DNA of 64,000 nt from a virus (taxonomy: Duplodnaviria; Caudoviricetes): the IMG/VR virus record IMGVR_UViG_3300020190_000004; one strand, given 5' to 3'. Of the stretch, positions 4,900-30,800 are shown piece after piece. Position numbers and translations under genes: made by a program. Each line of letters starts with the position of its first letter. The stretch's first letter is position 1. A model generated the notes under the pieces. It did not search any database, was not told the DNA's origin, and worked only from the letters and a program-made list of their open reading frames with translations.

Positions 4900-4923
4900 T
4901 CCTGCTTAGTTTTTATTCTTTAT

Positions 4924-4932
4924 GTATATATC
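4924..4932 (-). promoter_or_regulatory. Putative late promoter GATATATAC
   Basis: Recurring intergenic 9-mer, about 25 nt upstream of the ATG at 4899. Confidence 0.6.
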
Positions 4933-4933
4933 A

Positions 4934-10900: not shown

Positions 10901-12523
10901 CCAGCTAAATTCGAGCGGTCTTTCTTTCCAACGAGGATCGTTTACCAAGTTACGAATGTAAGTACCTATTTTAGAAGAAGAGCGCAAATCAAAAGTTTTT
11001 ACGATTCTTGCTCCACTCATATAATCTTTTATAGTAGTCTCTAAATTAACCCACGGGATATAAGTATCAGGGTTAATTGGGTGATCAACTCTTAAAATTA
11101 CAAAATAGTCTGGTAGATTCTTTCTTAACCAGATAGGTGCTAAGAAGGTAAAGTTTTCATCGTAAAACTTGCTCTTAAGTTGCTCTACACCGTAATTGTA
11201 AAAGTTATCAAACTGCTGTGAATATGATTGTTTTGTGTTTAAGTACTGGTCATCGTATTCATGTAGGTCAAAAACAATGTCTGCGGGAGTTTGTCCTTTC
11301 TTAAAGAAATCGTACAAACTCTTTTGGTATGTGGAGTTAGGGTTAACCGCAAACTTTTTATAAGAAGCTTCTGATAGCTCTTGGTTTGCATCAAAAGAGT
11401 TTAACCAAATATCACCTTTTGAGTCAACTGTAAGTTTTACGTTTCCCGAAAGCTTAGGATTGGTCTTAAGTAAACCATAAGAAGATCTATCATCGTATAA
11501 CGGGTCAAGTATAGGGTAATCTATCGCAGCGTTATCTCTGCTAGGTCTAGCATAATCGTCCGGATAACCAAAGATATGAATCTCCTGGTAATCAGCATCA
11601 GTACTGTACGGAACAGAGGCGCTGACGTCGCCTGACTTAAAACCAAACGGCGGGGTTGATAAAAATGCATTTTGAGGATAGTTAACCGGATCATACGGAG
11701 CGGATTCGGGAGGTGGAGTAGCGTCAGACTTAAATATCAAAAAATTAATCTTTAAGTGAGCGTCATTTGCACCGTCATAGTCTATTCGAAAAGTAGCACC
11801 GTTAGTTTCTTCGTTTCCGTTTGTGGGTGTAATGCCTTGATGTTCTACTTTAGTCCAAAATGCTTTCTTTCTTGTTATGAATCCCGTTTCATCTCCATAG
11901 TTACCAGACCAGGTAGTTCCATCGAATGGGTTTGGATAAGTTATCTGGTATGTGTAAAGAACGTTGGCGTCAGTAGCTGAGTAGTCAGCTCTTGCTAAGT
12001 CGTCAGCCGGTGCTGCATTTATCTTAAAGTTTTGTCCGTCTTGCTCTACAAACACACCTAACTTTAAAACAGTGGAAACTGGGACAGGCGCCGAAAAAAG
12101 CGTTCCTGATGACGTCTCAACTACTATTACACCGGGTGCATATGAAATTACTTTAACAGGAGCGTCTGCGACGGTTAAGGACGGATCTAGGTCCCACCAG
12201 TTTCTAACAACAAGTTCTTCCGATACGCGATTAAATGAAGGCGTTTGATTATTTAGTGGAGATACATCAGAAAATGAAATGGTTTGCGTCAAAGCTGGAA
12301 AAACCAAAGGCGCAGTGCTGTCTACAACGATCTCAGCTCTTTGCTCAAATGTATACGCCTGGGGAAAACCTATTATGTATAAGTCTTCATTTGGTAATAT
12401 AGGACCAAACAGGGTAGCATCATTCCTAATTATTGATATGAATGTAGTAGTCTTACCTTGTAAAACTACCTCCCTCTCTACATCTATCTTATAGAAAGAT
12501 GGTATATTTGGTGTTATTGGCAT
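4934..12523 (-). CDS. Very large virion structural protein (tail/baseplate-associated), 2529 aa
   Basis: Intact 7.6 kb ORF, rich in beta-forming and Gly/Thr/Pro residues. TAATG-coupled to the upstream gene and located among tail genes. No specific family recognised. Confidence 0.6.
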   Translation of the reverse strand: MPITPNIPSFYKIDVEREVVLQGKTTTFISIIRNDATLFGPILPNEDLYIIGFPQAYTFEQRAEIVVDSTAPLVFPALTQTISFSDVSPLNNQTPSFNRVSEELVVRNWWDLDPSLTVADAPVKVISYAPGVIVVETSSGTLFSAPVPVSTVLKLGVFVEQDGQNFKINAAPADDLARADYSATDANVLYTYQITYPNPFDGTTWSGNYGDETGFITRKKAFWTKVEHQGITPTNGNEETNGATFRIDYDGANDAHLKINFLIFKSDATPPPESAPYDPVNYPQNAFLSTPPFGFKSGDVSASVPYSTDADYQEIHIFGYPDDYARPSRDNAAIDYPILDPLYDDRSSYGLLKTNPKLSGNVKLTVDSKGDIWLNSFDANQELSEASYKKFAVNPNSTYQKSLYDFFKKGQTPADIVFDLHEYDDQYLNTKQSYSQQFDNFYNYGVEQLKSKFYDENFTFLAPIWLRKNLPDYFVILRVDHPINPDTYIPWVNLETTIKDYMSGARIVKTFDLRSSSKIGTYIRNLVNDPRWKERPLEFSWDSSTPTYWSGAVYTEGTLSAKGELIHDYIEQDRLIKEFEDFVTGGFQRNNIISTNLLNLEFLFDDEEAPLYSINRYIGFYVTENQLAEFEIEPTVLGKISGQTPLPKPEVDGQPYSIKPFVQTNANGIQIPVHYYHNTAFVNNTSIVPSYQGEVLGKFPLPAMVDDPLRLFYVRDRDNIFKKVRKLTEVDYGSPLSPDYVRATQLELFDTQENISSYGGVADIVSQFPATLLDSGHAQLRLHLLDQFGTGCIANDEELIFEVKNYNNPDSSYTYYTQVTNFVAGTSLTLAYFIDQNVIQTTAPFTQLAPGLDVTISVTTTANLVVGQSLYIVQGGYYSVTAIPTASTVTIKNLGNPGNAAPATVIVAGKLTGSALGGIATYNLNPLDTYLSIDNYVKLNLVDFSTGYSLYDAWRIELDAPSIQKFILNGTNEVDAEYTPQYQQFRWRLQANGLGLQPGDAWDYPLLDPNGVDYVSNFSNEGRLDQVAKAIVKCVNSFGNLPVQAWSDGTEVYMRSNLLHEEGNSIQFKRVLQGNSYYANVGFYEVGNVDRGNELKVQTLQITPTTTSDTYDIEAKVLQEPDQITNTSYFVQVTRDNFSTNILIRLGINASTWALATSTGTPFIFNIPTKDEFFVDNSIPITFNLKKIPIGTTGQFIYTQTSSSEVQQYFVGGQKRLRNRARIEFLNGQNYYQNKKVIRKGNTTSGSPIVTIDSTGLYVGNPIIGSGIPNGAKIIDVNVGSVVMNVNSTETASGVKITAGELSILNDNKINQQWYQSLKSVFSRMKGWEVQGKYVYSLPYLDQPTYDAENYLSGFKNYKDYSIIQLDKYDQEFYYSNDNRIVAYKVYRPTFGIFSIFPIKEFDFDFLFSEYSYTPTLEILKYFFSEEALDNEYIELDLFNNYKVEQFNGAGSADTSSFDLDVEAYDVETDIWTMVESLQNVSGSSEFLFNTFYPLYDYDMVSGQPDGYPYLAPDPTNANTSLEVQSRAAGFRNFDRRYLVKLDPDTNESVVFYPEKFRVKYRQTGVSTAEKIVITNYNYENDKDVKLFNGFAGIQDITSLNDAQTIENLKQNGQFIEALTYQLLLSEYDRLRENFTKDWAVRSKTVPYINKWVQEGTDARDNYYRLDTSLGFGLSNLSPSSVVDFAEPSVLTHEFPYLDAIPQDYPKESLESSRSYFFEKLDTTVWRGRTWYDLITSNVENDWFSKYFSLGYPSEAFFGGNKIPKSRDERYTFFIYNTGTGKSQTLFRGAKIEITQYEAGPNITTSLSTPIPNSTDFEGYKFSAIARFLPYEPFTIEKPVDIEVLKNDKFKTITMIFSIKVKDYRTQSGHIDYALQYFANDVLKNSNQNQLKYDLAVGTLSSSMLRNFLPYDGTYTTYLNPYTPNAVMRPRQGFLGGGYIQLGDKKIGGLVDYTPTVSPEWNAPIPPGQNTKAQLFMNFNSVDPVTYQFSLLNEITTINNDYRVPDSPYPFIQDTSLTGSIWAKEFGYDGYEFNIHSVLYKQNSSSEIYTFWNFLDSQDRVDILTLSSISIGSAKKYSRFRTNITSTGVLLQSALASPAPTTIPGSVPSNSEVNETYFVNGGTDGFQSIKNYITFGNIQSLINTDSTLIEYYNVTDSGKVLAYDYRLNIINPDTLVKTNVLNTATDEDKPIEYQSTSIIGYNIVDTNGQEFITRHRGYYEPKTRDILSFWVREDDSFSSHFELDFLLSNTHINAKSSLSGLVRNYGINKVSTGGEVMVISTGSSYKSLYPLVGEVSVTNKDFNAFTSSWDKDFYRNYQTTNDFTEVYGIAEMQETKAFLASKAMNVPKKFDLHEYIDGVEYTFELVQPAAAIGVDALSSNNSAVQQGMPYSNRPKVIITVNIEEKLRRELLAGIDNPNNVDEFTRLTTLGISELTSLSTEELLNLKTQYINKNIINIYQVTDVTLYSLQQQGVELVNGDLTEVEKFRNGYRVDKDCVVTKLSDFKFQLTKTLNPAVPVGFTFSATVKRI

Positions 12524-15500
12524 TACGACTGAAGAGTTTTAATAGTTTCTTTTGTATAGACAATGTTTTGTAATTGTTTGTTAACCGTTGGGGTAGCAGT
12601 AGCAATCACTTGACTTAAAGAAGATTTCTTATAGACAGCCGATACTTGAATGTCAAAAGAAAATGCTGGTTCGTCTTGTGCGTATATGTCAACGCCGATT
12701 CTTCTAATATATGTTAAGTTTTTAGGTGGTACAGTAACCGATGGGTTAAACCCACCAACTATGCCGGCACCAGCGCCACCCGAAGTTCCATAGTAATCTT
12801 CCATTCTGTACTGAAAGACAACAGGTATGATGATTGCGTTTTCATCTCCAATTTCAACAGTTTTCGTCGAACGAGCATCAATACCTTTTACGTTTAATTG
12901 ATTAAACACACTTGGGCCAAGAAATAAATAAGAGCCTACGGTGTTAGATCCTATCAAGAATCTGTCATTAGATAAGAATCCAAACTTGTCAGGAAGCTCA
13001 GAAGGGTTTGTGACAGCATAAGACGTAGTAAAAGGAGCAGGCCCAACATTTTGTAAAAAAGATTGCCTATAGCTTAATTGTGCAGAAGGCACACCATTGC
13101 TTGCCATTGAATTTACCAAAGCCGCATGCCTGAATGCACCAACTGCTTCGGGCGCAACAGCATACCCGGTAGAAGGATCTATGCTGACTGTAGGTAATTG
13201 TAAGTTAGCCGCTTGAAATGTAATGCCAAGAGAGGTTGTTGACGGGTACAAGTCAGGGTGATCCGTATGAAAGCAGAATACAGTTTCGCTACCTGGTCCT
13301 AGCGGTATCCCGCCCGGCAAAATGGGTTGCCCGTCCCATATCCACGCTTGAGTGGTACCAGGTGTAAAGTCGGGTAAAAGGGTTCTCGTAGGAGCTTCTT
13401 TGTATAAAGACTTAACTAATCCTACGTCAGTATACCTTGACCATACATACTGCCCCGTTGACTGTCCGCTTTGGTAATACGCAGTAGCAAATTTGTTTGA
13501 GTTATTTGTGTCTTCTGCATTTATAGAAGTTTGAACTATTGGGACCTGGTCATATTTTCTAAATACGGTGAAATCGCTGTCATTGACCGTTGGAAACAAG
13601 ATGTTAGGGTCATATGGTGAGTTAGGAAGAAAGGACGGTACTGTAGTCAAAGATGTCGGTAAAGAGCCGCCTATCCCACCTGGGAATCTTGAAACTAATT
13701 GTAGCGGCGTTGCTTCGCTATTCTGTATTGCGATCTGATATACTCTATTCACAATTGCTCCACGTCTCTCGTTAGGAGGCAACAATGTTACGTAGTCTAA
13801 GTAGTAACCGGCAAAAAGATCGATTACTGTTGAGTTACTTACAGCTATTTTGCTGTTATTGCTTGGGTCGATTATGTAGACCATAAGTGTCCCAGCCACT
13901 TTATCGAGGCGATCTTCTAATGAAGCGATACGTTTTTGAAGTTCTTGGAGTTTTTCATACAGAGATATTACTTTCCCTTCTTGTGTATAAAAATTAGAGG
14001 CTACCACATCCGCGTCGTGTGCGTAGTACTTTTCTAGCGAATTAAAAGAAGATGATAAATGGATATCTAATCCTTTAGCTGCTAAGTTATTCTCAAGCTC
14101 TACATTCACGATCTCCTTGCTTGCTTGTGATAGAGCAAGACTTGCCTCATCTTCTGTAAATAAATCGATAGGAAATTCTATCGTAATCGTAGCCGATGGT
14201 TCTGATAGTAGTGGGTTTTCTGGCCAACCAGCTTCTGACACACTCTTAACAAATAATTCTACCTTTTCGCCTTTGCTGATAGGAATGTCAACCTGATTTA
14301 TGTTTACTGAGTCAGCGTTTTCTACGTTTTCAGAGGCCCACTCATATTTACCAGTTGCGATGTTGTATACTTTTTTTCGTATTTCACTTTTAGATTCTAC
14401 AAGATTGGAATATGTACCTCTCTTCGTTTGACCATTTTGGTCAGTAAAGTCGAATTGTTTAACATCTCCTTGACTACCGTCTGGGCGAACATAACGGTAA
14501 TATGTTATGAATTGTATCACTTCTTGGTTACCGGTTTTAGGAGAACGCTTGGGGTTAGGTACGCCAAAGAATCCGCGTATTCTATACTTAGGACCGTCTA
14601 GTGCAGCTGGTTTTGCCTGTGCAATAACTGCAAGTTCTTGGACGATTGATGCATAGAGAGAAGATTTGATAGTTCTTTCTCTAATTAAACTGTCTAGTTC
14701 GTTCTTAACAGCTCGTCTTTCTGTTGGGCTATTGAATTGTTTAGAGTTCAGTTCCTCCTTTTTGACATTAATCGATTTTTCCAATTCTTTAATCTCTGAT
14801 TGAAGAGTTACTTTATCAGCTTGTTTTTTACGAATGCTCTCAACTTCTGATTGGTCAAGTTTATGATCATTGACCATAACTACTTTAAAGTTAGAATCAT
14901 TTAGGGTAGGTGCGTCAGGAGTGATGCCGTCGACTGCTGAAATTTTGCCCTCTTTAGCAGCAGATAGCAATATGTTACCAAAGTCAAGAACGTTTTCTTG
15001 GTAAAACTGAGTCATGGTAACATTACCTATACTAGTATCTGTAGATAAGTCATTAGTATAAAATGCAACGCCTGGAGAATAATCAATAGATATTATGTTT
15101 TTCTCGTCGTTAACAGTTCTAAAGAAAACAATGTTATATTCGTCAAAACCAATTCCAACGTTTACTAGTTTTGGGGAGAAGGTTTCAGAATAAACCGAGA
15201 CGGATTCTCCAACAACTAGCGGATCGAAGCCGTTAAGCCTTTTTAGACGAATGCATTTTGTGGAATTGTCGATCTCAATAACTTCGTATAGAGTTTCTCC
15301 CTTTAAGATACGATCTCCTGTTCTAAGAGTTTCAGTATCCTTTGTTAAGGACAGGTTATCTGTGTATGTAAGTTTGTCAAGTAAGAACCATCTCTTGGTT
15401 GAACTTGTGCCGTCAGCAAATGTTACTTTGCGATCTTCAAAGTTTACCAAAGTAAAGTTACCTGTGTAACGGACGATGCTAAGAGGCATATCGTTTACAC

Positions 15501-16095
15501 TTTCGTCTATGAAGAATGCAATGTTTTGTGTTTGCATATCTATCATAAAACTAACATAGTCAATGTCACTTTTACCTTTTAAGTTATTGTTAAAGTATTG
15601 CAGCTTTGCTTCGGTGTCAAGTTTAAGAATGTGACGTTTAACAAAGATTTTCGACTCTTGTTGTGGAACGTAAGGCGTAATATCAAAAGTAACTTTAAGA
15701 GCTGGTGTCATCATGCTCTCAAAGAACCAGTTATTTTCGGCAATGAACTTTGAAGGTGTAACCAGATTAGTAACAGGATTTGGGTTTCTTAGTGCAACCG
15801 ATTGGTAAATTCTCTTAAATGTGCCGTCGGGCATTCTAATAAATGCTTCACTTCCGTCAAAACCAAGCAGCTTTGATATAGTAGCATCTATCCTGTCAAT
15901 GCTACTTTTAAGATAGCCAAAAGAAGGGACAGAATATGTGGTCGTAGTCCCGTCAGTGTTATTCACATCGACTGTTACGGTATCGCTATTAGATATCGTT
16001 GCTTTTTGTATTGTTTGCAAAGTATCCAGCGAATTGTTATACACTTTTATGAAGTTCGCCAGAATCGTAGAAAAACTATTCTGTGTAGTTGCCAT
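12523..16095 (-). CDS. Large virion structural protein with coiled coil and FN3-like segment, 1190 aa
   Basis: Central coiled coil (KKQADKVTLQSEIKELEKSINVKKEEL) and FN3-like C-terminal strand (VKSVSEAGWPENPLLSEPS). Tail-operon context. Confidence 0.55.
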   Translation of the reverse strand: MATTQNSFSTILANFIKVYNNSLDTLQTIQKATISNSDTVTVDVNNTDGTTTTYSVPSFGYLKSSIDRIDATISKLLGFDGSEAFIRMPDGTFKRIYQSVALRNPNPVTNLVTPSKFIAENNWFFESMMTPALKVTFDITPYVPQQESKIFVKRHILKLDTEAKLQYFNNNLKGKSDIDYVSFMIDMQTQNIAFFIDESVNDMPLSIVRYTGNFTLVNFEDRKVTFADGTSSTKRWFLLDKLTYTDNLSLTKDTETLRTGDRILKGETLYEVIEIDNSTKCIRLKRLNGFDPLVVGESVSVYSETFSPKLVNVGIGFDEYNIVFFRTVNDEKNIISIDYSPGVAFYTNDLSTDTSIGNVTMTQFYQENVLDFGNILLSAAKEGKISAVDGITPDAPTLNDSNFKVVMVNDHKLDQSEVESIRKKQADKVTLQSEIKELEKSINVKKEELNSKQFNSPTERRAVKNELDSLIRERTIKSSLYASIVQELAVIAQAKPAALDGPKYRIRGFFGVPNPKRSPKTGNQEVIQFITYYRYVRPDGSQGDVKQFDFTDQNGQTKRGTYSNLVESKSEIRKKVYNIATGKYEWASENVENADSVNINQVDIPISKGEKVELFVKSVSEAGWPENPLLSEPSATITIEFPIDLFTEDEASLALSQASKEIVNVELENNLAAKGLDIHLSSSFNSLEKYYAHDADVVASNFYTQEGKVISLYEKLQELQKRIASLEDRLDKVAGTLMVYIIDPSNNSKIAVSNSTVIDLFAGYYLDYVTLLPPNERRGAIVNRVYQIAIQNSEATPLQLVSRFPGGIGGSLPTSLTTVPSFLPNSPYDPNILFPTVNDSDFTVFRKYDQVPIVQTSINAEDTNNSNKFATAYYQSGQSTGQYVWSRYTDVGLVKSLYKEAPTRTLLPDFTPGTTQAWIWDGQPILPGGIPLGPGSETVFCFHTDHPDLYPSTTSLGITFQAANLQLPTVSIDPSTGYAVAPEAVGAFRHAALVNSMASNGVPSAQLSYRQSFLQNVGPAPFTTSYAVTNPSELPDKFGFLSNDRFLIGSNTVGSYLFLGPSVFNQLNVKGIDARSTKTVEIGDENAIIIPVVFQYRMEDYYGTSGGAGAGIVGGFNPSVTVPPKNLTYIRRIGVDIYAQDEPAFSFDIQVSAVYKKSSLSQVIATATPTVNKQLQNIVYTKETIKTLQS

Positions 16096-19159: not shown

Positions 19160-19996
19160 TTACCGTGTTAAGTGTTCGCTATTCTCCCACTTTGGGTCAT
19201 ACCAAAACCTTCTACCGTTCTTGTCCATTCTTGAAGCTAGTTTTCCATAGCAGCGAACCCATTCATCAAAGTTAGCGGCATCTACTCCCGCTGGGTTTTT
19301 CCAATCTCTTAGTTGCCCACCTCCTAGTACATAAGCTTCTTTTACACACGTATGAGTCGTTGCTATAAGTTCATGTAGCATGTTAAGAGAAATGATGTTC
19401 ATAGGCTGAAACGGATCAATGTCTAACCTATAAAGGATTTCTGCCCGTAAGTAATTGCCCACACCGTTAAAGTATCCTTGGTCCATCAGGATTTCGTAAA
19501 GAGGCTTGTTAAGCTTCTTACTATTTTGCCAATCACTTAGTATCTTGTACTGAAACTCGTTAAACTCACTAAAAGGGCAAGGACCGCGACCACCGCCCCA
19601 ACCGTCGCTCCATTTCCACTTTGCAAAACGGCGTATATCATACATGATTAGCCAGTTTCCTGTAGTAGTCTTAAATCTCAAGTGACCGTGCTTAAGAGCT
19701 TTTTCCAGGTTTGGGCTATCTCCTCGCATATATATCCAAGAACCACTCATTCCCATAGTCATAAGTAGATTTTTTGTAACAGCGCCTTCAAGCCCTCCTC
19801 CAACCATTTCCATGTGAAGCATCAGTTCTTTACCTCGTGATTTTGCACGAATAGTAAATACACCTCCAGCGAAAGGGTTATCTTCTGTCTTAACTTTTGA
19901 AACCGGCGACTTTTCCATAGACTCAAAGAAAGTATCTTGCGACACAACCTGATTAATGAAGTCGGACATTATTTTTATCTCTGCTAATTCTGGCAT
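19160..19996 (-). CDS. nei: Fpg/Nei-family DNA glycosylase/AP lyase, NEIL1-like (zincless finger)
   Basis: Catalytic N-terminal PELAE, RGKEL, GMSGS, DIRRF, H2TH motif LMDQGYFNGVGNYLRAEILY and C-terminal DKNGRRFWY. No Cys4 zinc finger. Confidence 0.92.
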   Translation of the reverse strand: MPELAEIKIMSDFINQVVSQDTFFESMEKSPVSKVKTEDNPFAGGVFTIRAKSRGKELMLHMEMVGGGLEGAVTKNLLMTMGMSGSWIYMRGDSPNLEKALKHGHLRFKTTTGNWLIMYDIRRFAKWKWSDGWGGGRGPCPFSEFNEFQYKILSDWQNSKKLNKPLYEILMDQGYFNGVGNYLRAEILYRLDIDPFQPMNIISLNMLHELIATTHTCVKEAYVLGGGQLRDWKNPAGVDAANFDEWVRCYGKLASRMDKNGRRFWYDPKWENSEHLTR

Positions 19997-20712
19997 TATA
20001 CTAATACTGTGGGTGAATAAATGTTGTATAACTTTTCACACATAAGAATCATTGTCTTAACATCCTTTTCACAATATGTTTTAATTCTTTCAGTATTGCC
20101 TTTCCAGTATTCTTTATGTACTTGACTTCCGTCAATATCGTCCTTAGGAGAAGGAACACCCATTCCGTAAGCAGCTTCTTCAAAAGTAACATCTAGATTT
20201 GAAAATGATTTCCACATTTCTTTTAGATCCATGATATTTACTTCCCAGGGTTTTTTCTCATACGTGGATATTGCTTGTGGGATTGTAATTCCGTGCATTA
20301 AGAGCTTTCTTTGCACCCAAGGAACATCAAAGTTTTTGATATTCCAACCTGTTGGAATAAGCCCGCTTGCACCAGCTTTATGAAACAAGTTGGCGATAAG
20401 TTTCATCATTTTATCTTCGTCTTCTTCCATGATAGTGCTAACAGCCATTTCTCCGTTTTTCCAAACTCCATATGATAAGCAAACTATTCGCCCGAACTCT
20501 GGGAAAAGAGATACTTTATCTTGCCAACCTTGCGCCGGATCTCCGTAATTTAATCTGCTACACTTCTTCTCCCAAATGTGAGCACCTTCATGGTCTCTAT
20601 CTAACAGGTTATTGAAGTTCTCATACTTACCGCATGTTTCAATGTCAAAGAATAGCATTGAACTTAATTTTTGCTTGCTGTACATATTTTTTTCATTTGT
20701 TTTTATATTCAT
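19996..20712 (-). CDS. DnaQ-like 3'-5' exonuclease (PolB-exo-like family)
   Basis: ExoI FFDIET, ExoII GWNIKNFDVP and ExoIII YCEKDV motifs. The true start may be MYSKQ (20685), because the first annotated codons overlap a promoter-like motif. Confidence 0.85.
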   Translation of the reverse strand: MNIKTNEKNMYSKQKLSSMLFFDIETCGKYENFNNLLDRDHEGAHIWEKKCSRLNYGDPAQGWQDKVSLFPEFGRIVCLSYGVWKNGEMAVSTIMEEDEDKMMKLIANLFHKAGASGLIPTGWNIKNFDVPWVQRKLLMHGITIPQAISTYEKKPWEVNIMDLKEMWKSFSNLDVTFEEAAYGMGVPSPKDDIDGSQVHKEYWKGNTERIKTYCEKDVKTMILMCEKLYNIYSPTVLV

Positions 20713-20816: not shown

Positions 20817-21080
20817 ATGAATTTAAACACAAACCAAGAAGACCCAGGTCTTCACATCAATCCCAAAGACTTACCATGGGTAGGTTGCTCAAAAGGAATA
20901 CGAGCATATGAACAAGCTTTTCTTTTTAAGAGATTATCTCCACTATTAAGTCCAACTGGCAAAGAAGAGATGGTACCAGCCGAGATAGTTCTTTGCAAAA
21001 CCTGTGGAAAAGCTCCAAAGTTTATCTGGAGCAAAATACCTGACTTTCCAGAAGAAATGAAATCTGATTGTGAAAAATAG
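20817..21080 (+). CDS. Small hypothetical protein, degenerate zinc-ribbon-like
   Basis: C24, SPLLSPTGKE and CKTCG. First gene of a three-gene plus-strand island. Confidence 0.6.
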   Translation: MNLNTNQEDPGLHINPKDLPWVGCSKGIRAYEQAFLFKRLSPLLSPTGKEEMVPAEIVLCKTCGKAPKFIWSKIPDFPEEMKSDCEK

Positions 21081-21498
21081 TCCTTTCATAGATAAGAGGC
21101 TGGAGCTACGTCAAATACCAGAGATTAATGGTTGGGGTGTATTTACCACTGACCTAATTAAAGAAGGAGAATTGATAGAAATATCTCCCGTGATTCTTAT
21201 ACCTAAAAAATTGATTGATATAGCGATATGGGCATGTCAAGCAGACGGTATACCCAACAAGGATTTGATGCTAGATCAATACACATTACGATGGGGAGAT
21301 AATCTTGCTTGCCCTCTTGGATGGGTTGGCTTATACAATCACAGCGATAACAATAACGCAATGTTTGTTGGGGAACATGAAAAGAATCTAATAGGTATAG
21401 TGACAATTAAAGATATAAACCCTGGTCAGCAAGTTCTTGTCTATTATTCAGACGTTTGGTTTGCGGAAAAAGGGTATATCACAAAGGTAAACCTTTAA
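21070..21498 (+). CDS. SET-domain protein-lysine methyltransferase (copy 1)
   Basis: GWGVF, YNHSD and GQQVLVYY SET motifs. No post-SET cysteines. Confidence 0.9.
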   Translation: MKNSPFIDKRLELRQIPEINGWGVFTTDLIKEGELIEISPVILIPKKLIDIAIWACQADGIPNKDLMLDQYTLRWGDNLACPLGWVGLYNHSDNNNAMFVGEHEKNLIGIVTIKDINPGQQVLVYYSDVWFAEKGYITKVNL

Positions 21499-21920
21499 TG
21501 AAACCTTTTATTGATAGCAGGTTAGAAACTAAATACATGCCCGAGATTAATGGGTGGGGCGTATTCGCAAATAACAACATTGAAGCAAATGTGCTTATCG
21601 AAGTTGCACCTGTTATAGTTTATCCTAGCAGTCCGGTAAATCTTGCATTTTCTATTTGTCAAGCACAAGGAATTTCTATAGAGAATTTTCAAATAGATCA
21701 ATACGTATTAGAGTGGCAAGGCAACTTTGGCTTAATGTTAGGGTGGACTGCTGTATACAATCATAGCGATAACAATAACGTAAGGTTTCTTGCTGACTTT
21801 AAAAATTCTTTTATGACTATTGAAACTTTGCGAGAAATTAACGCAGGTGAACAAGTATTAGTTAGCTATGGAGAAGACTGGTGGAAAAAGAAACCTTACG
21901 TTAAGAAAGTAAATTATTGA
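21498..21920 (+). CDS. SET-domain protein-lysine methyltransferase (copy 2)
   Basis: Start moved to 21498 (TAATG overlap, MKPFIDSRLE aligns with copy 1). GWGVF, YNHSD and GEQVLVSY motifs. Confidence 0.9.
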   Translation: MKPFIDSRLETKYMPEINGWGVFANNNIEANVLIEVAPVIVYPSSPVNLAFSICQAQGISIENFQIDQYVLEWQGNFGLMLGWTAVYNHSDNNNVRFLADFKNSFMTIETLREINAGEQVLVSYGEDWWKKKPYVKKVNY

Positions 21921-22642
21921 TTTCCTTTTTCTTCTTCTTCGTCGAATATCTCGTCTATTTTAATAATAAGAGGGTTTCTTACGATATCAGCTCTTTCGAA
22001 TTCTACTACTCCGATATCATAAACATTAACAAACATTTTAACGATTCTAGCTAACGAGCTGGAACTTTTCTTGTTTAAGTCAATCTGCTTGGTGTCGCCC
22101 ATGATTATCATTTTGGAGCGATCACCAATTCTTGTCATAGTGGATCGCATGTTTTTCATGGTAATGTTTTGTGCTTCATCAACAATAATAAATGTATCAT
22201 CAATAGAACGACCGCGTATATAAGCAAGTGGGGTGATCTCTATTAGTTCATGATGTATAAGTTCATCGGTAAGAGGCTTTCCTATGATCTTGTAAAAGTT
22301 ATCCATAAATGATATCATAATGGGTTCCATTTTTTCTTTAAGAGTACCTTTTAAGAAACCGATGTCTTCTCCTTCAAGAACGGTAACACTTTTAGCAACA
22401 ATGATTTTCTTAAATTCACCTTTTGCTAATAGGCGAAGAGATTCTGCACAAGCAACGTATGTTTTTCCCGTTCCCGCTGGGCCAGCGCATATAATGATCT
22501 GATTATGATTTATCTGTTTAGCAAATTTCTTTTGATTCTCGGTCTTACATCTTAAAGAGATATCCAAACGAGTAAGTAACCTCTGTTGTGGAGTTAACGA
22601 ATCATATATTTCGTTGTTTGATGTTGATCTCCTTTTAGCCAT
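21914..22642 (-). CDS. phoH: PhoH-family ATPase
   Basis: GPAGTGKT (Walker A), GFLKG, AYIRGRSI, DEAQN, GDTKQID and IVRNP motifs. Confidence 0.95.
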   Translation of the reverse strand: MAKRRSTSNNEIYDSLTPQQRLLTRLDISLRCKTENQKKFAKQINHNQIIICAGPAGTGKTYVACAESLRLLAKGEFKKIIVAKSVTVLEGEDIGFLKGTLKEKMEPIMISFMDNFYKIIGKPLTDELIHHELIEITPLAYIRGRSIDDTFIIVDEAQNITMKNMRSTMTRIGDRSKMIIMGDTKQIDLNKKSSSSLARIVKMFVNVYDIGVVEFERADIVRNPLIIKIDEIFDEEEEKGNQ

Positions 22643-22912: not shown

Positions 22913-23497
22913 TTATACTTTAACTGTTTGTACTTTAACATCTTTTTCCGTTTCAATCTCCTTAGCAAGAGCTAAGTTATCGTCATTATCATCAAAGAAT
23001 ATGAAATCATTATATCCTTCTTCTACAAAGCGATGAATAGCTTCTTTCTTCTTTTCCGCGATATTTCCCTTAAAGCCATACTTAGGATCATTTACAGCAA
23101 TAACTAAATCGGTGTGAATGTCGATGCCATTCTCCAGGAAAAAATTGCGAATTAGAGAAGAGCTTGACCTTGCGGTAACTATTGATACATGTATGCCGCT
23201 GTTGTAAAATTTTAGAAGTTCGTCCATGACGTGAGTAATGAAAGTACTCTTTCTAAGGATATCAGCATCTTCAAACTCTTCAAAAGATAGCGTTTGCTTT
23301 GGGTTTGTATGAACAAAGTGATTAAACTCAGCGGGTGTCATTTCCTTTAGAACTCGACCTTTTTTAGGGTCAAGAACTTTAATCTTTGCCGCTGAAATTA
23401 TGAGGGTGTCATCAAGGTCAAAAATCGCTAACTTCTCTGCACGACTACCTTTAATCGTTGCCTCTTTTAGAACTTTACGTATTCTTCTGTTGACCAT
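22913..23497 (-). CDS. HAD-superfamily phosphatase
   Basis: Motif I IFDLDDTL, motif II IVTAR, Lys in EKKK and motif IV FFDDNDDN. Confidence 0.85.
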   Translation of the reverse strand: MVNRRIRKVLKEATIKGSRAEKLAIFDLDDTLIISAAKIKVLDPKKGRVLKEMTPAEFNHFVHTNPKQTLSFEEFEDADILRKSTFITHVMDELLKFYNSGIHVSIVTARSSSSLIRNFFLENGIDIHTDLVIAVNDPKYGFKGNIAEKKKEAIHRFVEEGYNDFIFFDDNDDNLALAKEIETEKDVKVQTVKV

Positions 23498-24831
23498 TCT
23501 GTGTATAGTTTATTTATCTCGTCGTAAATTGCGGATACTGAAAAGGCCCAAGTAGTACCTGACGAGAATGAACCCCAATAATTTGGGTCTGCATAAAAAC
23601 GAGCTCTTTCTTGTGTCTTTTTAGGAAAAGCAATTACTTTACCTGTATAAGAACCACCACTTGACTTAAGAATACCATCGTGTGTTTTAATCTTAGTATT
23701 AAGAATAGAACTTCTCCATGCAGGTGTTATGTTAATTAAACCACCGTCAGCTCTTCTTACGTCTAACCTAAGATAACGACCATTACCAGGAACAGGAAAT
23801 GTTTTATTGTCTACATAAAAATCGCTGGTACCTAAAAGAACGGGCAGTCCGTCAATGTAAGAAAACAAATACGGAGCAGGCCACGTCGGATTTCCGTTAG
23901 GATATTGAGCTATTGTTTTTTGTGAATAAACATATATTTGATTAGTACCTACTGTTGCATCATAAACTGTAAATTCATTAATAGTTAAATTGCCATCAAT
24001 GTCGGGTATCATAGACGCTAATCCACCAGTTCCTGTTCCTTTTATGTCAAGCAGTTTTGGGCCGGCTATATTGCCTGCTGTTCTATTTATCTTAATTGTT
24101 GTGATTCCACCACCACCAACAAAAGGTGTTAAAGAAATATCAGGGTTCTGATCTAAACCCGTCACATTATACACAAAGTAATTGGTTGGGTCAGAAACAT
24201 CTCTGGCCATGATTCTATACTTTCGGCTCTCCTGATTAACGTCATCCCAGTAAAAATATAAGTCACCTGTATTTCTGTCGTGCGAAACGCTTAGGTTAAT
24301 TGGTGGAACAGCATTATTAAAAGTGCTTAGGTCTTGGAACAGTCGCCGGTTCCAAGCAAACACATCTCCTGATTCCATATCTAAAGGCTGACCTTGCGTA
24401 ATTACACAAGTTAATGTATATGTGTAGCTATAAGTACTGCCAGCGATTGTAAATGATATGTCAGTAACTTTTGCGATATATCCTCTAACCCAATCGTGTG
24501 TAGAACTCTTAACTACAAAAGTATCACCGTCTTTAATTATGTTTGATCCGTAAAGTCCAGGATTCGTAGCTGAAGTTTCTAGCGTGGCATCATACTCAAC
24601 GATAAAAGTAAAAGTACTTAATTCGCCAGTTACACTTATTTGAGAAGTTGGTGCTGTAAGAAGAGAAGCTTCATACGAAACGCTATAGTCATCTGCGCTT
24701 GTGAGTTCAGATGTAAAAATCTTTCCTTGCAATTCTCCGCTAGGAACGTTACCATCTTCTATAGACGGAGATCTTAAGACCTGGTCTTGAAAGTTTGAGT
24801 AAATCTCGGGTGCATTATTACGAATTCTCAT
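23467..24831 (-). CDS. Putative virion structural protein with FN3-like segment, 454 aa
   Basis: PPINLSVS...YFYWDDVN..SRKYRI. Overlaps the gp7-like gene by 14 nt. Confidence 0.5.
   Translation of the reverse strand: MRIRNNAPEIYSNFQDQVLRSPSIEDGNVPSGELQGKIFTSELTSADDYSVSYEASLLTAPTSQISVTGELSTFTFIVEYDATLETSATNPGLYGSNIIKDGDTFVVKSSTHDWVRGYIAKVTDISFTIAGSTYSYTYTLTCVITQGQPLDMESGDVFAWNRRLFQDLSTFNNAVPPINLSVSHDRNTGDLYFYWDDVNQESRKYRIMARDVSDPTNYFVYNVTGLDQNPDISLTPFVGGGGITTIKINRTAGNIAGPKLLDIKGTGTGGLASMIPDIDGNLTINEFTVYDATVGTNQIYVYSQKTIAQYPNGNPTWPAPYLFSYIDGLPVLLGTSDFYVDNKTFPVPGNGRYLRLDVRRADGGLINITPAWRSSILNTKIKTHDGILKSSGGSYTGKVIAFPKKTQERARFYADPNYWGSFSSGTTWAFSVSAIYDEINKLYTEWSTEEYVKF
23510..23518 (-). promoter_or_regulatory. 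Putative late promoter variant GATAAATAA
   Basis: Just upstream of the ATG at 23497, inside the end of the upstream ORF. Resembles T4 TATAAATA. Confidence 0.35.
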
Positions 24832-27800
24832 AGATGGTTAAAAAGTCATTTCTTGTGTAATTCTTCTTATTGCCATTGGTATCAGTAATTTCTAATTCTA
24901 ACGTAAATTTGCCAGGACGATCAAATGTAAACATCATTTCAGAATCAGTCAATTCTACCAAGGTACTATTTTCATTGGAAAGTTTCCAATAGAAACTAGT
25001 TTTTCCAGCAATTCTACTAGCATCAGAAGAAAAATAAACTGTAGTCCCGGAGGGTAATTTAACTGGTTCAATTCCAATGTAGGTATCCTCCCATCGCCAA
25101 GCACCTCCTATCGCAGATTCATACGGCAAACGATTTGATTGAGCTTCTGCTACTAAATCATTGTCCCAAACAGGCAACGCCGGCGGTGGCGGATTCATAG
25201 TAAAACTGTATTGAAGTGGTAAGTCAGCAGCAGGATACCAGCCTCCTGGCAAGGAAAGAGGGTTAAGACCTTCATGTTGATAAATTTGATAGTATCTGCT
25301 TGTCATTAAGAATTCTTTTAGTCCTCCTTCAAACGCGCCTACAAGCCCTGGTCCGTAACCAAAGTGTTTTGCCACATTTTTTAGAGGGTATGTGTGACAA
25401 ATCGGAGTGTTTACGAGGTTAAGCGGGTCTTCAAAACTAATACCGTTTTGACCTATTAACCAGCCTAAATGGTCAGTAGAAGGAGTTGCTGCAACCGCGT
25501 GTATTTTTAAGTTAGTGGCATTTTGGAAAACTAATGTAAAGTCAACTTGTTCATTTGAAAACCACTCCACATCAAATGAACAATTAACCTGAGTTACAGT
25601 TGAAGCAATGTCAAGTTTAAGAGTATTAACACTGCCTTGATAAGAATTGATTTCAACGATTCTTGCGGGAAAAGCTGGCGAAGTAGGCAACCCCGGTCCA
25701 GATATTATCTCTCCTACGTATATTTCATTTTCGTTAAGGCCAGTAATCTTGGATATTATAGCTGACCCGTTTTTAAGATTGCCTACAAAACTAAGTTTCT
25801 TAGGTAACGGGTTAACCATTTTAATATCATTGGGTGTAACACCTATAAAAGGATATGTTTGAATTTCAGCAGCAGGGCCAGTAAATTCGGAGATGATCAC
25901 ATCTCCCGCAGAAGGTGAGGTTACTACTGTAGGTTGAATAATTAAATCAGGGTGATCATATGTGTTTAAGGTTCCAGTAATTTTTTCTTTGTCTACATTT
26001 TCTTCACCGAGCAATTCATATTCGAATCTAGATAACCCAGGGTTGTCTGTTGCTCGTAATTCATAAAGAGCTTGAGAAAATTTTTCTCCATTAGACATAC
26101 CACCAACTATGCCCTGAAAATAAAACGTAGGATCATTATTAAATTGGATGTTTCCATTTTGGTCAACACCCGTGATTGTAAAATCACATGCAATTCTTTC
26201 TTGAAAGTCTAAAGTATCCCATGTATGATAGTAAGATTCTTTCCATGTAACAGATCTGTAATTTTGCCATTGTTGAACAAGCGTCCCAATTCTTCTTTCA
26301 GCAAAGTCTTCATCAAACTTTCTTTGCATTACATAGAAAGAAGAAGAACTTCTTAATAGCTCGGATTCTTCATCGTCAAGGGTGAGTATTGTGCCAAGTC
26401 CGTTTCTCCAGTAACCTGTATTAGTTACAAGAAGGCTGTAATCGCCAGAAACAATACCGTGATCGTAATACCAACCTTCGCCAGTTGTGGTGACAGCAAA
26501 TTCTGCCGCAAGGGCGCTATTAAAGTCTCCACTTGACGGGTACATGTTAAAGTCCATAAAAATTTCAGCGTTAGGGCCAGAATTCTGAAAAAGATAAGAT
26601 CTAGTTGGAAACTCGTTATACTCATACTCTAACCAAATACTTGAACCAGCGGCTTGTGTAGCTGCTAGATGTGCTGTGAGTCCGTTGATGCTCCCTCCAT
26701 CAAGAGCAACAAAATCGATTACGTGTACTCCGTCATATCCAGGAGGTAAACCGCCCCAAATATCGAAAGGGTGACCTGTGTTGCTTGTGTCAAAGAATAC
26801 ATGTGTCGTTCTTAACCGCTGTTCATATGAATTACCGCTAACAGGGTCTATCAGGTAGATTGATATGACAGAAAAACCGGGAGTAAGTTCTCCAGTTGGA
26901 TTGGCTGGCAAACAACCCGGAACACCTGGACCTGCTGTTGCGCTTAATATGTAAAGTTTTCCAATATGATCGTTTACGAGAGGGTCGTTTGATACACTTG
27001 GTTCTATAACCCAAGTAGAATTTACAGGGTTAGTGTCCCAATTTAGATTACCGTTTGCTACATCAGTGCCTCTATACTGGTATATCATTCCTAACTCACC
27101 GCCCTTGGAATAAACTGGATCTGAAGCACCACCGTCAATGGTGATACTATTAGGCTGACCTGGTAAAGGAAGCGTGTCTTTGTTTATGATCTGCTTACGG
27201 AATCTTACAGGTATCTCATCATGACCAAAAAGTCTAATATAATCACCAATAACTATTCCAGTGGGGTTTGTAACAGCATTATAGATTTGATTGCCATCAA
27301 GAACAATGGTTCCTCCAATTTCTCTTAACACTTGCCATGTAGTAGGGCTGTTGGTAAAAGCAGATGGAGGCGTACTTGTAAGTTCAATTTCAGTTTGACC
27401 TGGTGTTGCATAATTTGCATTCAGGACTTCTAGCTGATATGTAACATCATCACGTCTAATGAATACCCAATCATTAGGGTTAATTGCAGGTTCTATTTCC
27501 GGGTAAGGTCTTTGACCGGAAACGATTATTGTTGGGTTAAGCGTAGAAGGAGTAGTAGTAGAATCAGTATAAGAAATAACTGCACCTTCGACATTATCTT
27601 CAGGCGAAACCTGAATAACTTCGATAGGTAACTTTATAGGGTAGTTATATTTGTTTACACCATCTAAGTTTCCAGTCTCTAAACTATCCCATCTTACTTG
27701 AGAAGAATCCCACGTCGTCATGGTGAATATGGGATTCACCCAGCGCCCAAATGCGTTTTCCCATGTGTAGCGAATATCATCCGGTATAACAGGCTGAAGA

Positions 27801-30800
27801 TCAACAGGATTAGGTTCGAACTCCGGTATAGGTGCCTGGTAATAACCCTCCCAGCTATCTTCATAGCCATTAGCGTATTTTGCTACATAAGCATAAGTAG
27901 CTTCTGGGAGTATTACGTCGATAAAGTTATTCTTTATCTCATTTATGAAGTTGTTATCTGTATCATAAGCAATCATTTCAACTGTGTACTTACCTACATA
28001 TGGAAGTATAAGTTGGTGATTGATTAAATCGTCTATAGGTTTAATTCCTGAGACATAATTGAACTGATGAATAGGATTTTCTGGTGCAGTCAGAGTAACT
28101 TTCCATTCCATCTGATAGAAATCACCTCTACCTAATTCATCCCATGTATATAAGTTTCCAACATGCCCACCTTTAGGTGAAATAGTTGGTACTGAAGTAT
28201 AACCAATGCCTGGGTTAGTAACACTTACACCTTCGTGAATTTCAATTTCATCACCAGCAACAGTAGTAATCACAACCGGAGAACCATCGAACTTAGAAAG
28301 AACAACTTGTGAAAAAGGTTGGATCACGCCACTTACAATCGTGCCTTCAGGAATGCCTGGACCTTTTATTATTCTGTTTGGGCTAACAGCGTTGCTACCA
28401 ACAACAGGCAACAATGGAGTCAAGTCTAAAACGTTTCCTGCAACAGCAGTTACGGTAAAGTTGAGAATTTTTAGTTGTCCGTTTCTTAATTCAGCGGGCG
28501 CAGATAAACCGCAGACTTCGCCGCCAGTTCCGTCTCCACCTCCTACAACAAAAGTTGGGGCATATCTATAAACGTTGCCAGGACTAACTATTTCAACGGC
28601 CAGCAACTGTCCAGAACCTAAAGGCAATTCACTCACATATCCTTTAAGTACTGCATCGCTTCCTCCACCAAGTGAGTTCCATGTGTATGGGACTTCGTTC
28701 CATGTAATGTCAAACTGAGTTTTTAAGTCAAGAGGTGCACCCACAGGTGAACCTGCAACATTAATAAAGCCAAAGATTGGTGCGTTATCATTAAGATAGC
28801 CAATCGGCGAATTATTCACTGTTACCAGGTCTAAGTTGATAGAAGAACCTATATTTGGTAAAATGTCAACAGTTGGTATGTTGCTATACTTTAAGCCTTT
28901 TGTAGTAAAACCAATGCTTTCGATTTCGAAAGGAATGTCTGTTGATAAGCAATTAAAACCTTGAGCTGATGCAGTTACGTACTGTGTTCCTGAGATTCTA
29001 AAAACGCTTGCCTGAAAAAACCCTGCTGTAGGTAAGGCGGAATAATTAGAACCTTGGTGCAATCCTGCTTGAATCGCAAAGTTGGTCACTTCTCCGTTAG
29101 GGCCTACAACATTAACCGTGATTCTTATCGGCACTTCATATACACCACCGCTTAACGTAATGACATCTCCAGGCTGATAACCCGTACCACTTGGTGTAAG
29201 TGGAGCAATGATTCCTAAAGAATATGCACGCATCTTTGCGTACCCGGTTGCTTGCTGGTATGCTTGTCCGGGAAAAGATACTTGAGGTATTTCACCCCAG
29301 TAAGGTCCACCTGAAGTTGCAATAAGCGCACCGTTTATGTTATACTTATTTGTATATTCTTCTAATAAATCAAAGTATGGCGGCGAAGGCAGAGTTTCAT
29401 CTGAATCAAAAGAAATAGTACTTTCTATTTCAATCGATTTCTTTTCAGCATCAAAGTCGATCTGACGAGTAAGATCTACATTAAAGTAATTACTTGGATC
29501 ATTCCAAGAATTTATTGAGTATCTATCATAATAAACACCTTCACCTGTAATATCAACTATTTTTGAGTTAAGAGGCAAGAATTTTTCTTTTAAGTATCTC
29601 TTTAATGCAAATAGTTTAACTAAGACTTCTTCGTTAGTATAATCAAAAGCATCTTGCGTAAGAGGCACGCCAAATGTATCAAATACACCTTTATCTTTTA
29701 TGATGTCATAAAATAAACCAAATCTACTAGTTTTCTTATAGTGTTTACTAGGTACTAAAGAAATTTCTTTCTTGGTGTCGCCTTTTGTGTCTAGTTGAAA
29801 AGGAATTTGTACTTGCCTGTACTTACCAAAATACTCGTCATCTTGGTTAACATTTAAGAAGTATTCTTTAACACGAATGTCATAATAACCAAACCAGTTA
29901 AGTATGTTAACCAATCCTTTATAAGATCCTACATAGGGCCAGATATTGTTGCCTTCAAGCAACATTTCTTTTCTCTTGGCGTTAAGAAGCAAGTTATCTG
30001 TTAAATCTTCGTTTATATCAGATTTTCTGAGTATGAGCTCTTGTTCGTAATCAACATCACGACCAAAGTTTTGTAGAAGCAAGCCTAATCTTTCATCTTC
30101 TGCGACGGTTTCTCCTTCATATAGACCAAGAAAGATTCTTATAGGTGTTTCATAAGTAACATCATCAATGTTAATCTGCGCCGCGTAAACACCTTCAATA
30201 TCAGATCTTAAACCAATGTTAAGAGCAAAGGCTTCTTGTGGAATTCTTTGATGAACAGTTCTTTGATAAGTAGAATTCCCTATTGGAAATGTATCAGGCG
30301 CCGCACTTTCTTGTGGGTCATTAAACTCAAAGAAAAAATCATTTATTTTTTCTACTGTTGGGTAATCTTCATTGTAGACTACGTCAAACAAGAAAAATTC
30401 TTTATCACTATTCTCTTCTATGTATGCACGATATATTGGAATAACTCCAAATTTCATTGTACCCGTTGAAGTAGTAGGAATAATCTGAGCAGATTCAAAG
30501 GTAAGTTCGGTTGGAGAAACTTTTACCAAATCATGTCTTCCGTCTAATGAAGTAGATCCAAACGTATCAAAAATGCGTATAGTATTACCTACGCGTAGAT
30601 TATGAGGCTTAAAAAACTCTAATGTTACATTACCAGCTGATAAATCCGTACTGATAGTTACTGTGTTGTACGTTGTGTCTATTTCTGTTATAAAAGAGGG
30701 TTGGGTCAAGACTCCACCAGTTACAAACATTCCAATCTCAAGAGTAGATATTATTCCAGGAGGGATTCCCCATATTTTACTGAGTTTTGAGGCCAAAACA

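Follow-up and report, generated by a model that had tools for sequence, protein, structure and literature searches.

A published phylogeny of Fpg/Nei proteins resolves nine clades, with NEIL1 as a metazoan clade and the mimivirus protein Nei1 outside the NEIL1 clade (PMC3188539). The same study says that a state called 'LSC3' is unique to metazoan NEIL1; residues are numbered there as in Bst MutM (1R2Y), and the NEIL1 state is listed as 'unknown'.

Here we describe a gene in viral DNA from a metagenome, the product of which is a phage enzyme of the NEIL1 type and not an ordinary bacterial Fpg or Nei, as is supported by its sequence, by profile searches, by its predicted fold and by phylogenetic trees. 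What is new is that this is a phage-borne, minimal form of a known enzyme type; the automatic annotation in IMG already uses the NEIL1 label.

The glycosylase gene and its product

The gene occupies positions 19160..19996 on the minus strand of the window, i.e. of the 64,000 nucleotides of DNA that were analyzed. The open reading frame starts with ATG and encodes a protein of 278 aa (P0001 in the following), which is assigned as a NEIL1-type Fpg/Nei DNA glycosylase/AP lyase on the basis of the reading frame, Pfam matches, the match to NEIL1 and a structural model. Its translation contains every segment that the initial annotation had quoted from it, and the N-terminus reads MPELAE. The N-terminal catalytic beta-sandwich domain (aa 1-127; 19616..19996, minus strand) is the span of Pfam PF01149, Fapy_DNA_glyco, which matched with an E value of 3e-13 and 50.8 bits (cut-off 25.5). 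The H2TH DNA-binding domain with the motif FNGVGNYLRAEILYRL (aa 147-229; 19310..19558, minus strand) is the span of PF06831, H2TH, which matched with 5e-10 and 39.6 bits (cut-off 34.7). A zincless finger (aa 241-267; 19196..19276, minus strand) was assigned from a match to Neil1-DNA_bind over the same residues, which at 2.4e-4 and 21.2 bits lies under the 25-bit gathering cut-off of Pfam, together with DSSP strands in the model, the residue R262 and the cysteine counts. The C-terminus comprises 11 residues past this finger. With both domains above their cut-offs and with Pro2, Glu3 and the Lys all present, P0001 is, judged by its sequence, an enzyme of the Fpg/Nei (H2TH) superfamily.

A search of PDB sequences with phmmer returned human NEIL1 for all of the top 15 distinct sequences (15/15), with E values from 5e-41 to 1e-39 and about 35% identity. 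The initial annotation had proposed that the protein matches NEIL1 collinearly from end to end. This is what we found: residues 1-267 align collinearly with residues 1-282 of human NEIL1 (E 5e-41), and the human segments quoted in the initial annotation agree with the alignment, among them GMSGS, hAHLRF, DIRRFgRW, GRGPC, FNGiGNYLRAEILYRL and WlRCYG...GRtiWf. The best match to a bacterial Fpg had an E value of 3.8e-8. Mimivirus Nei1 matched over a stretch of 45 residues only (E 4e-5); mimivirus Nei2 and E. coli Nei gave E values of 0.016 and 0.03, respectively. The equivalog models of NCBIfam gave a similar picture. P0001 scored 77.9 bits against the model for bacterial Fpg (TIGR00577; cut-off 203.3) and 39.4 bits against that for Nei (NF007763; cut-off 252), and it did not match the model for Nei2 (NF040775). 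The scores from phmmer, Pfam and NCBIfam indicate that the likeness of P0001 to NEIL1 is real and specific and not due to chance.

The structure of P0001 was modeled with AlphaFold2 on an alignment of 42 sequences (mean pLDDT 95.2, pTM 0.91). The 50 best PDB matches of this model in Foldseek were all human NEIL1, with TM scores of 0.74-0.82 (query) and 33-36% identity. The zincless finger, which the initial annotation had singled out for structure prediction, contains a C-terminal beta-hairpin in the model with strands at 254-257 and 263-266 (DSSP). It carries Arg262 (human Arg277) and Trp265 (human Trp280) and has no Cys4 set. The latter had been proposed from the translation and is borne out by the counts: P0001 has only three cysteines (C140, C217 and C249), one of them in the finger region, and no CxxC pair. 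NEIL1-like sequences in general have between 0 and 2 cysteines in this region, while 9/10 canonical Fpg/Nei proteins have 4.

The conservation of single residues was scored in an alignment of 167 sequences with 111 short forms, as we call the compact relatives of P0001, 11 forms from metagenome-assembled genomes (MAGs) and 35 eukaryotic NEIL1s. The residues P2, E3, E6, K56, M83, R122, F124, N181 and R262 are present in >90% of the 111 short forms, in all 11 MAG forms and in the 35 eukaryotic NEIL1s; R262 occurs in 106 of the short forms. Four of these residues (P2, E3, E6 and K56) are invariant in the alignment termed A1 and are kept across all groups. The human equivalents of P2, E3, K56 and N181 are P2, E3, K54 (K60 in Bst) and N176, and the void-filling triad is present as M83 (human M81), R122 (R118) and F124 (F120). 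P0001 has the full set of residues for catalysis and DNA contact. W265 is found in >90% of the short forms; together with N177 and R184 it is common to the short forms and eukaryotic NEIL1 and is absent from canonical Fpg/Nei proteins.

The short forms have their own version of the lesion-recognition loop. Their clade shows a conserved motif, GGGQL(K/R)DW-NP, which makes the loop 4 residues longer than that of eukaryotic NEIL1. Human Tyr244 is replaced by Trp232 in P0001, and the edited Lys/Arg242 by a Gly, so that P0001 does not carry the eukaryotic recognition-loop signature of a Lys/Arg at 242 and Tyr244. Because the recognition loop diverges, the substrate preference of the short clade may differ from that of NEIL1. 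All short forms in alignment A1 also lack two other elements, an insert of about 20 residues after the H2TH motif and a long disordered tail.

Carriers and gene neighborhoods

The window is part of an IMG/VR viral contig of 83.7 kb, which is estimated to be about 30% complete (CheckV). It encodes a baseplate wedge protein (phrog_219, 3e-32), an endolysin (phrog_181, 1e-70), a Baseplate_J-like region, a gp5-like OB domain, a head-tail adaptor and PhoH. The baseplate, endolysin and head-tail adaptor genes identify the window as DNA of a tailed bacteriophage. Nearly identical DNA was found in 22 metagenome runs from lake water; these are all from 2018, possibly from one campaign, and 12 of them may represent the source sample. 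No RNA data set was among the runs that matched. A megablast search with 10 kb of the window found no match among deposited phages.

A NEIL1-type enzyme had been called unexpected in a phage. This holds for cultured phages and named viruses: a tblastn search of 50,697 deposited phage records revealed no close relative, and the best matches were ordinary Fpg proteins with 23-30% identity. The best match in BFVD was gp292 of Bacillus phage G (21%), followed by Fpg-like proteins of giant viruses (16-19%). It does not hold for uncultured phages, since a protein of this type, about 270 aa in length, is encoded on at least 423 IMG/VR contigs. A word-indexed protein search gave 1554 matches; the best 120 of these 1554 are all about 240-293 aa long and come from metagenomes. 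Many of these best 120 relatives already bear the automatic JGI label 'endonuclease VIII-like 1'. An exhaustive search of representatives at 50% identity detected 101 clusters with E <1e-30 and 366 with E <1e-10. The literature set that we searched, outside which most subscription journals fall, contained no report on NEIL1-type enzymes of phages or Poribacteria. Short NEIL1-type enzymes form a big, apparently undescribed clade, with members in large phages that are uncultured and in a small number of bacteria.

The short NEIL1-type gene is carried mostly by large T4-like myophages with genomes of up to 380 kb. The baseplate-wedge family phrog_219 was detected in 14 of 25 other long carrier records, including one of 318 kb (96% complete) and one of 380 kb (100% complete). 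The Pfam model Baseplate_J was less sensitive than phrog_219 and gave only sub-threshold matches, in 4/25 records. The capsid protein of nucleocytoplasmic large DNA viruses (PF04451) was found in none of the 25 records; the control genomes contained no giant virus and were likewise without matches. This is no evidence that such a capsid is absent, and the carriers were instead assigned to phages by their baseplate and endolysin genes.

The gene directly upstream of the glycosylase gene (19996..20712, minus strand) encodes a 3'-5' exonuclease of the PolB-exo2 type with 238 aa (PF10108, 2.6e-16; phrog_25228, 5.9e-34). Its TAA stop codon overlaps the ATG of the glycosylase gene (TAATG). The exonuclease has no sequence match in the PDB. 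Two other genes on the same strand as the glycosylase gene are given for context. One encodes a PhoH-like ATPase (21914..22642, minus strand; Pfam PhoH, 3.9e-64) and the other a HAD-superfamily-like protein (22913..23497, minus strand), whose match to Acid_phosphat_B (3.4e-4) is below the cut-off. The latter protein had no sequence match in the PDB under E 0.1. A role as a PNKP-type 3'-phosphatase stays speculative, as there were only sub-threshold Pfam matches and no match in the PDB.

The neighborhood was compared over 80 loci with flanks of up to 10 kb per side. The 18 closest loci, with 53-61% identity, share the gene order of the window and represent the same phage lineage (lineage A); this order is absent from the other 62 of the 80 loci. 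In profile searches the exonuclease gene was linked to the glycosylase gene in 18/18 loci of lineage A and in only 2 loci elsewhere. The HAD-like gene was co-located with the glycosylase gene in lineage A only. PhoH was found near the glycosylase gene in 22/80 loci, with gaps of 1.3-4.6 kb outside lineage A; a higher count of 53/80 from single-linkage clustering of blastp matches was discarded as a clustering artefact. None of the partner genes that might define a pathway is conserved over the whole clade in the profile search of the 80 loci. Outside lineage A the glycosylase genes neighbor DNA-metabolism modules. The genes found there encode a dCMP deaminase, a ThyA-like enzyme, subunits of a T4-type topoisomerase II and the small subunit of ribonucleotide reductase; in one other lineage the glycosylase gene overlaps the gene for an NAD-dependent DNA ligase.

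Among prokaryotes, with each species represented by one genome, 11 loci with a short NEIL1-type gene were detected. Seven of these belong to Candidatus Poribacteria, and an additional locus, L092, clusters with these seven and shares their synteny. The remaining loci are from MAGs of Flavobacteriaceae, Saprospirales and Neomarinimicrobiota; the context of the Flavobacteriaceae locus is ambiguous and possibly viral. The flanks in Poribacteria are cellular, with two sulfatases, RlmL, an L,D-transpeptidase (YkuD) and a GFO/IDH/MocA oxidoreductase. This arrangement is kept in four loci, the glycosylases of which are 71-95% identical. The NEIL1-type gene was the sole member of the Fpg/Nei superfamily in 5/5 MAGs examined, including two of Poribacteria (L090 and L091); the gene contexts of L091 and L088 were obtained by ORF calling and Pfam. 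An HMM of the clade was also run on a sample of 151 genomes from the GTDB phylum of Poribacteria. It separated NEIL1-type reading frames (251-323 bits) cleanly from canonical ones (52-64 bits).

Proposed role of the enzyme

The homology, the fold, the clade-wide conservation of catalytic residues and the fact that the gene is the sole Fpg/Nei form in some bacteria make an active repair enzyme the most likely interpretation. With a probability of roughly 0.8 we consider P0001 to be a functional, minimal NEIL1-type bifunctional glycosylase/AP lyase that would repair oxidised bases in phage DNA; we infer activity, substrates and role by analogy. Following what is described for NEIL1 and Fpg/Nei enzymes, Met1 would be removed and the amine of Pro2 would then attack C1' of the flipped-out damaged base with the assistance of Glu3 and Lys56. 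Met83, Arg122 and Phe124 would plug the gap in the helix, while the H2TH motif and Arg262 of the zincless finger would grip the phosphates that flank the lesion. A beta,delta-elimination would finally produce a one-nucleotide gap. The targets would most likely be oxidised pyrimidines, formamidopyrimidines and hydantoins in the DNA of a phage that replicates in sunlit, oxic lake water, and the glycosylase would be expressed in an operon with the 3'-5' exonuclease. Large freshwater and marine myophages would then have oxidative base-excision repair among their self-encoded functions.

The gene order in lineage A raises the possibility of a larger unit, an APE-independent base-excision repair module like that of mammalian NEIL1 and PNKP. 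The glycosylase/beta,delta-lyase would in this case act together with the 3'-5' exonuclease and a 3'-phosphatase of the HAD type. The coupling of glycosylase translation to that of the exonuclease at TAATG agrees with such a module, as do the location of the HAD-like reading frame about 2.9 kb upstream on the same strand, the presence of all three genes in 18/18 loci of lineage A and the overlap with a DNA ligase gene in another lineage. We nevertheless judge the module to be unlikely. The database matches do not tie the HAD-like protein to PNKP-type 3'-phosphatases, and sequence searches gave no homolog of known structure for the exonuclease. In the loci outside lineage A, the glycosylase is accompanied by the exonuclease in only 2 cases and by the HAD-like protein in none, and co-location within one lineage may simply reflect shared ancestry.

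Quite unlikely is a role as a specialised phage tool, which would remove particular modified or unmodified bases in connection with DNA modification, or would attack host DNA for shutdown or nucleotide recycling, with the divergent loop setting the specificity. The clade-specific loop motif is indeed unlike that of eukaryotic NEIL1. The dCMP deaminase and ThyA-like enzyme encoded next to the glycosylase in other lineages can serve base modification in T4-like phages, and the coupling to an exonuclease in the lineage of the window would also fit. But all of the repair-type catalytic and void-filling residues are kept, and searches with Pfam and PHROG profiles identified no base-modification genes adjoining the glycosylase gene in the window. 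Furthermore, the housekeeping context of the gene in Poribacteria, where it is the only Fpg/Nei gene, argues for a generic repair role.

Relationship to eukaryotic NEIL1 and to other Fpg/Nei enzymes

The phylogenetic position of P0001 was analyzed with IQ-TREE (LG+C20+F+G4 PMSF) on an alignment of 103 rows and 267 columns. Canonical Fpg/Nei proteins from cultured phages and from the sample of the Poribacteria-related phylum served as the outgroup; this outgroup is narrow because the sampling is without NEIL2/3, actinobacterial Nei, plant and fungal Fpg and mimivirus sequences. Fragments of <235 aa and two primate isoforms were left out, and this tree is also without the long-branch sequence P0207 and redundant representatives. 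The eukaryotic sequences are those of the long matches in our searches, which are NEIL1s of primates, tuatara, amphioxus, oyster, tardigrade, crab and Hydra. EukProt transcriptomes with NEIL1 come from the amoebozoan Vermistella, the choanoflagellate Mylnosiga and the euglenid Ploeotia.

The tree separates the short forms and eukaryotic NEIL1 from the canonical Fpg/Nei proteins with a support of 100/100. P0001 groups neither with ordinary Fpg/Nei proteins nor with the Fpg proteins of cultured phages (SP-15 and G; 21-27%). Together with the results on sequence, profile and fold, this upholds the view that P0001 follows NEIL1 and not bacterial Fpg/Nei. The initial annotation had placed the protein with the NEIL1 clade. 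This is correct for a NEIL1-like superclade; within it, however, P0001 belongs to a phage clade of 12 members (97/93) and lies neither inside nor beside eukaryotic NEIL1, which is monophyletic (97/99). P0001 has a different recognition loop, lacks the insert and the tail and falls outside the eukaryotic clade; for these reasons it is a NEIL1-type relative and not an ortholog of NEIL1 in the narrow sense. Among known enzymes the short clade is the one nearest to eukaryotic NEIL1.

At its backbone, where about 25 lineages of short forms meet the eukaryotic clade, the tree is a polytomy, and the bootstrap had not quite converged. In a FastTree analysis of 167 rows the eukaryotes were nested among the short forms with weak support. 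A topology with all short forms in a single clade was not rejected (AU p = 0.15, delta lnL 36), so that neither a nested position of eukaryotic NEIL1 nor a sister relationship is established. This bears on the suggestion, made from the sequence alone, that NEIL1 may have its reservoir or ancestor in large phages. The diversity of the short forms and their prokaryotic hosts are compatible with it, but the polytomy, the AU test and the carriers among Poribacteria do not single out phages. Since Poribacteria hold a syntenic chromosomal gene, which is their only Fpg/Nei member, a bacterial source of NEIL1 is equally open. A tentative scenario, to which we give somewhat less than even odds, is that the NEIL1 of eukaryotes descends from a short, zincless-finger Nei lineage of the prokaryotic world, now found mainly in large phages and a few bacteria, and that it was acquired once, with the insert and the tail being added later. 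The reverse transfer, a recent viral capture of a eukaryotic NEIL1 gene in place of an old prokaryotic or viral lineage, could draw on the single eukaryotic clade (97/99) and on its permitted position as sister to all short forms (AU p = 0.15), but it is highly improbable, because endolysin and myovirus baseplate genes mark the carriers as bacteriophages and not as viruses of eukaryotes, the short forms are far more diverse (>100 clusters at 50% identity), are not nested in the eukaryotic clade and lack the eukaryote-specific insert and tail, and Poribacteria have syntenic chromosomal copies.

In our analysis NEIL1 has its nearest relatives in a large, varied group of compact enzymes from uncultured large phages and some bacteria. 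NEIL1 itself was also found in the amoebozoan, choanoflagellate and euglenid transcriptomes. The origin of NEIL1 can now be tested directly with better-rooted trees. The short forms also provide small, tail-less natural NEIL1 cores for work on structure and substrate specificity. Their alternative recognition loop, with Trp in place of Tyr244 and no equivalent of the edited position 242, is of special interest in this context.

Among the known systems, human and other metazoan NEIL1 (PDB 1TDH, 5ITX, 6LW*) is most similar to P0001. The core of residues 1-282 is collinear with P0001 at about 35% identity, and the model superimposes with a TM score of about 0.8. Both proteins share Pro2, Glu3, Lys54, Met81/Arg118/Phe120, Asn176 and the zincless finger with Arg277 and Trp280 (human numbering). 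Only the human protein has the disordered C-terminal interaction tail of about 100 residues and the post-H2TH insert of about 20 residues (approximately human 197-222), and its recognition loop reads GG(K/R)GYG, whereas the short clade has the longer loop motif given above.

The Poribacteria proteins (L090-L097) resemble P0001 in their length of about 270 aa, in the catalytic residues and the zincless finger and in belonging to the same superclade, at 35-40% identity. They differ in that their genes are cellular and lie in a conserved neighborhood with the order sulfatases, RlmL, NEIL1-like gene and YkuD. Bacterial Fpg (MutM) and Nei (endonuclease VIII) share with P0001 the superfamily, the two-domain architecture and the N-terminal Pro/Glu chemistry. 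In contrast to P0001 they have a Cys4 zinc finger; they are also set apart by the 100/100 split in the tree and by E values of only 4e-8 and 0.03, respectively. The Fpg proteins of cultured phages (Bacillus phage G gp292, SP-15 gp167 and MutM of Acinetobacter phage MD-2021a) are phage-encoded members of the Fpg/Nei superfamily like P0001, but they are only 21-30% identical to it, are of the Cys4 zinc-finger type and group with canonical Fpg/Nei. The mimivirus enzymes Nei1 (L315, PDB 3A46) and Nei2 (L720, PDB 4MB7) are likewise virus-encoded Fpg/Nei proteins, and the former, MvNei1, shares the zincless finger (PMC3188539). Both of them, and the Fpg-like proteins of giant viruses, are remote from P0001; in our analysis it is instead the phage clade that is the nearest relative of NEIL1.

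Structural region of the phage

A run of very large ORFs adjoins the baseplate genes on the minus strand of the window (1-16095, 24818-31357 and 37555-42141), with predicted products of >1633, 2529, 1190, 2179 and 1528 aa. These giant ORFs beside the baseplate genes are kept across the window's phage lineage. Searches of Pfam and PHROG with those that were tested returned zero matches; the ORFs presumably encode giant tail-fibre or baseplate proteins. Also within the structural region, and on the same strand, are an ORF with weak matches to Amidoligase_2 and to pentapeptide repeats (34910-36376) and, following it, a gene whose 398-aa product carries two S1 RNA-binding domains (36324-37520; 7e-21).

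SET-domain ORFs and PhoH

Two overlapping SET-domain ORFs are arranged in tandem on the plus strand of the window, while the neighbouring genes are on the other strand. The first (21070-21498) encodes 142 aa and matches Pfam SET at 8.7e-12; the second (21456-21920) encodes 154 aa. Both are kept in all of the 18 lineage-A loci, i.e., those closest to the window. SET-domain lysine methyltransferases are uncommon in phages.

The PhoH homolog of a sister phage (L019:6431-7477) is about 100 aa longer, and its N-terminal part has a weak match to Intein_splicing, which at 6e-5 lies below the cut-off. This PhoH may contain an intein.

NEIL1-type genes in other lineages

Chromosomal NEIL1-type glycosylase genes occur in Candidatus Poribacteria (loci L090-L097; for example, L091:6001-6813 in a MAG), where the gene order is conserved: sulfatases, RlmL, the NEIL1-like gene and YkuD. 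In both Poribacteria genomes checked (G001 and G002) the NEIL1-type gene is the sole member of the Fpg/Nei family. The assembly XB_MAG1182 has two copies (L093 and L096), one from each Poribacteria subclade, which could reflect either paralogy or a binning mixture.

In another phage-like lineage, the NEIL1-type gene (P0140, L125:198-986) shares 8 nt with the beginning of a gene for an NAD-dependent DNA ligase (L125:979-2265; DNA_ligase_aden plus OB). This overlap suggests that the two genes form a glycosylase-ligase repair pair.

A further NEIL1-type protein, P0119, is encoded on a contig of about 47 kb (L002, with features at 1045-1770 and 12556-13637), and the same protein is found on additional contigs of 0.2-1 Mb, the longest being 474 kb. 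Other products encoded on the 47 kb contig are a microbial-type poly(ADP-ribose) glycohydrolase, a pair of class-Ib tRNA synthetase fragments and a NUMOD3 homing endonuclease.

NEIL1 homologs as long as the typical eukaryotic form were found in EukProt transcriptomes of Vermistella (Amoebozoa), Mylnosiga (a choanoflagellate) and Ploeotia (a euglenid) (P0256, P0257 and P0228). Unless these sequences are contaminants, NEIL1 may thus have an earlier origin or a wider distribution among eukaryotes than the label 'metazoan clade' implies.
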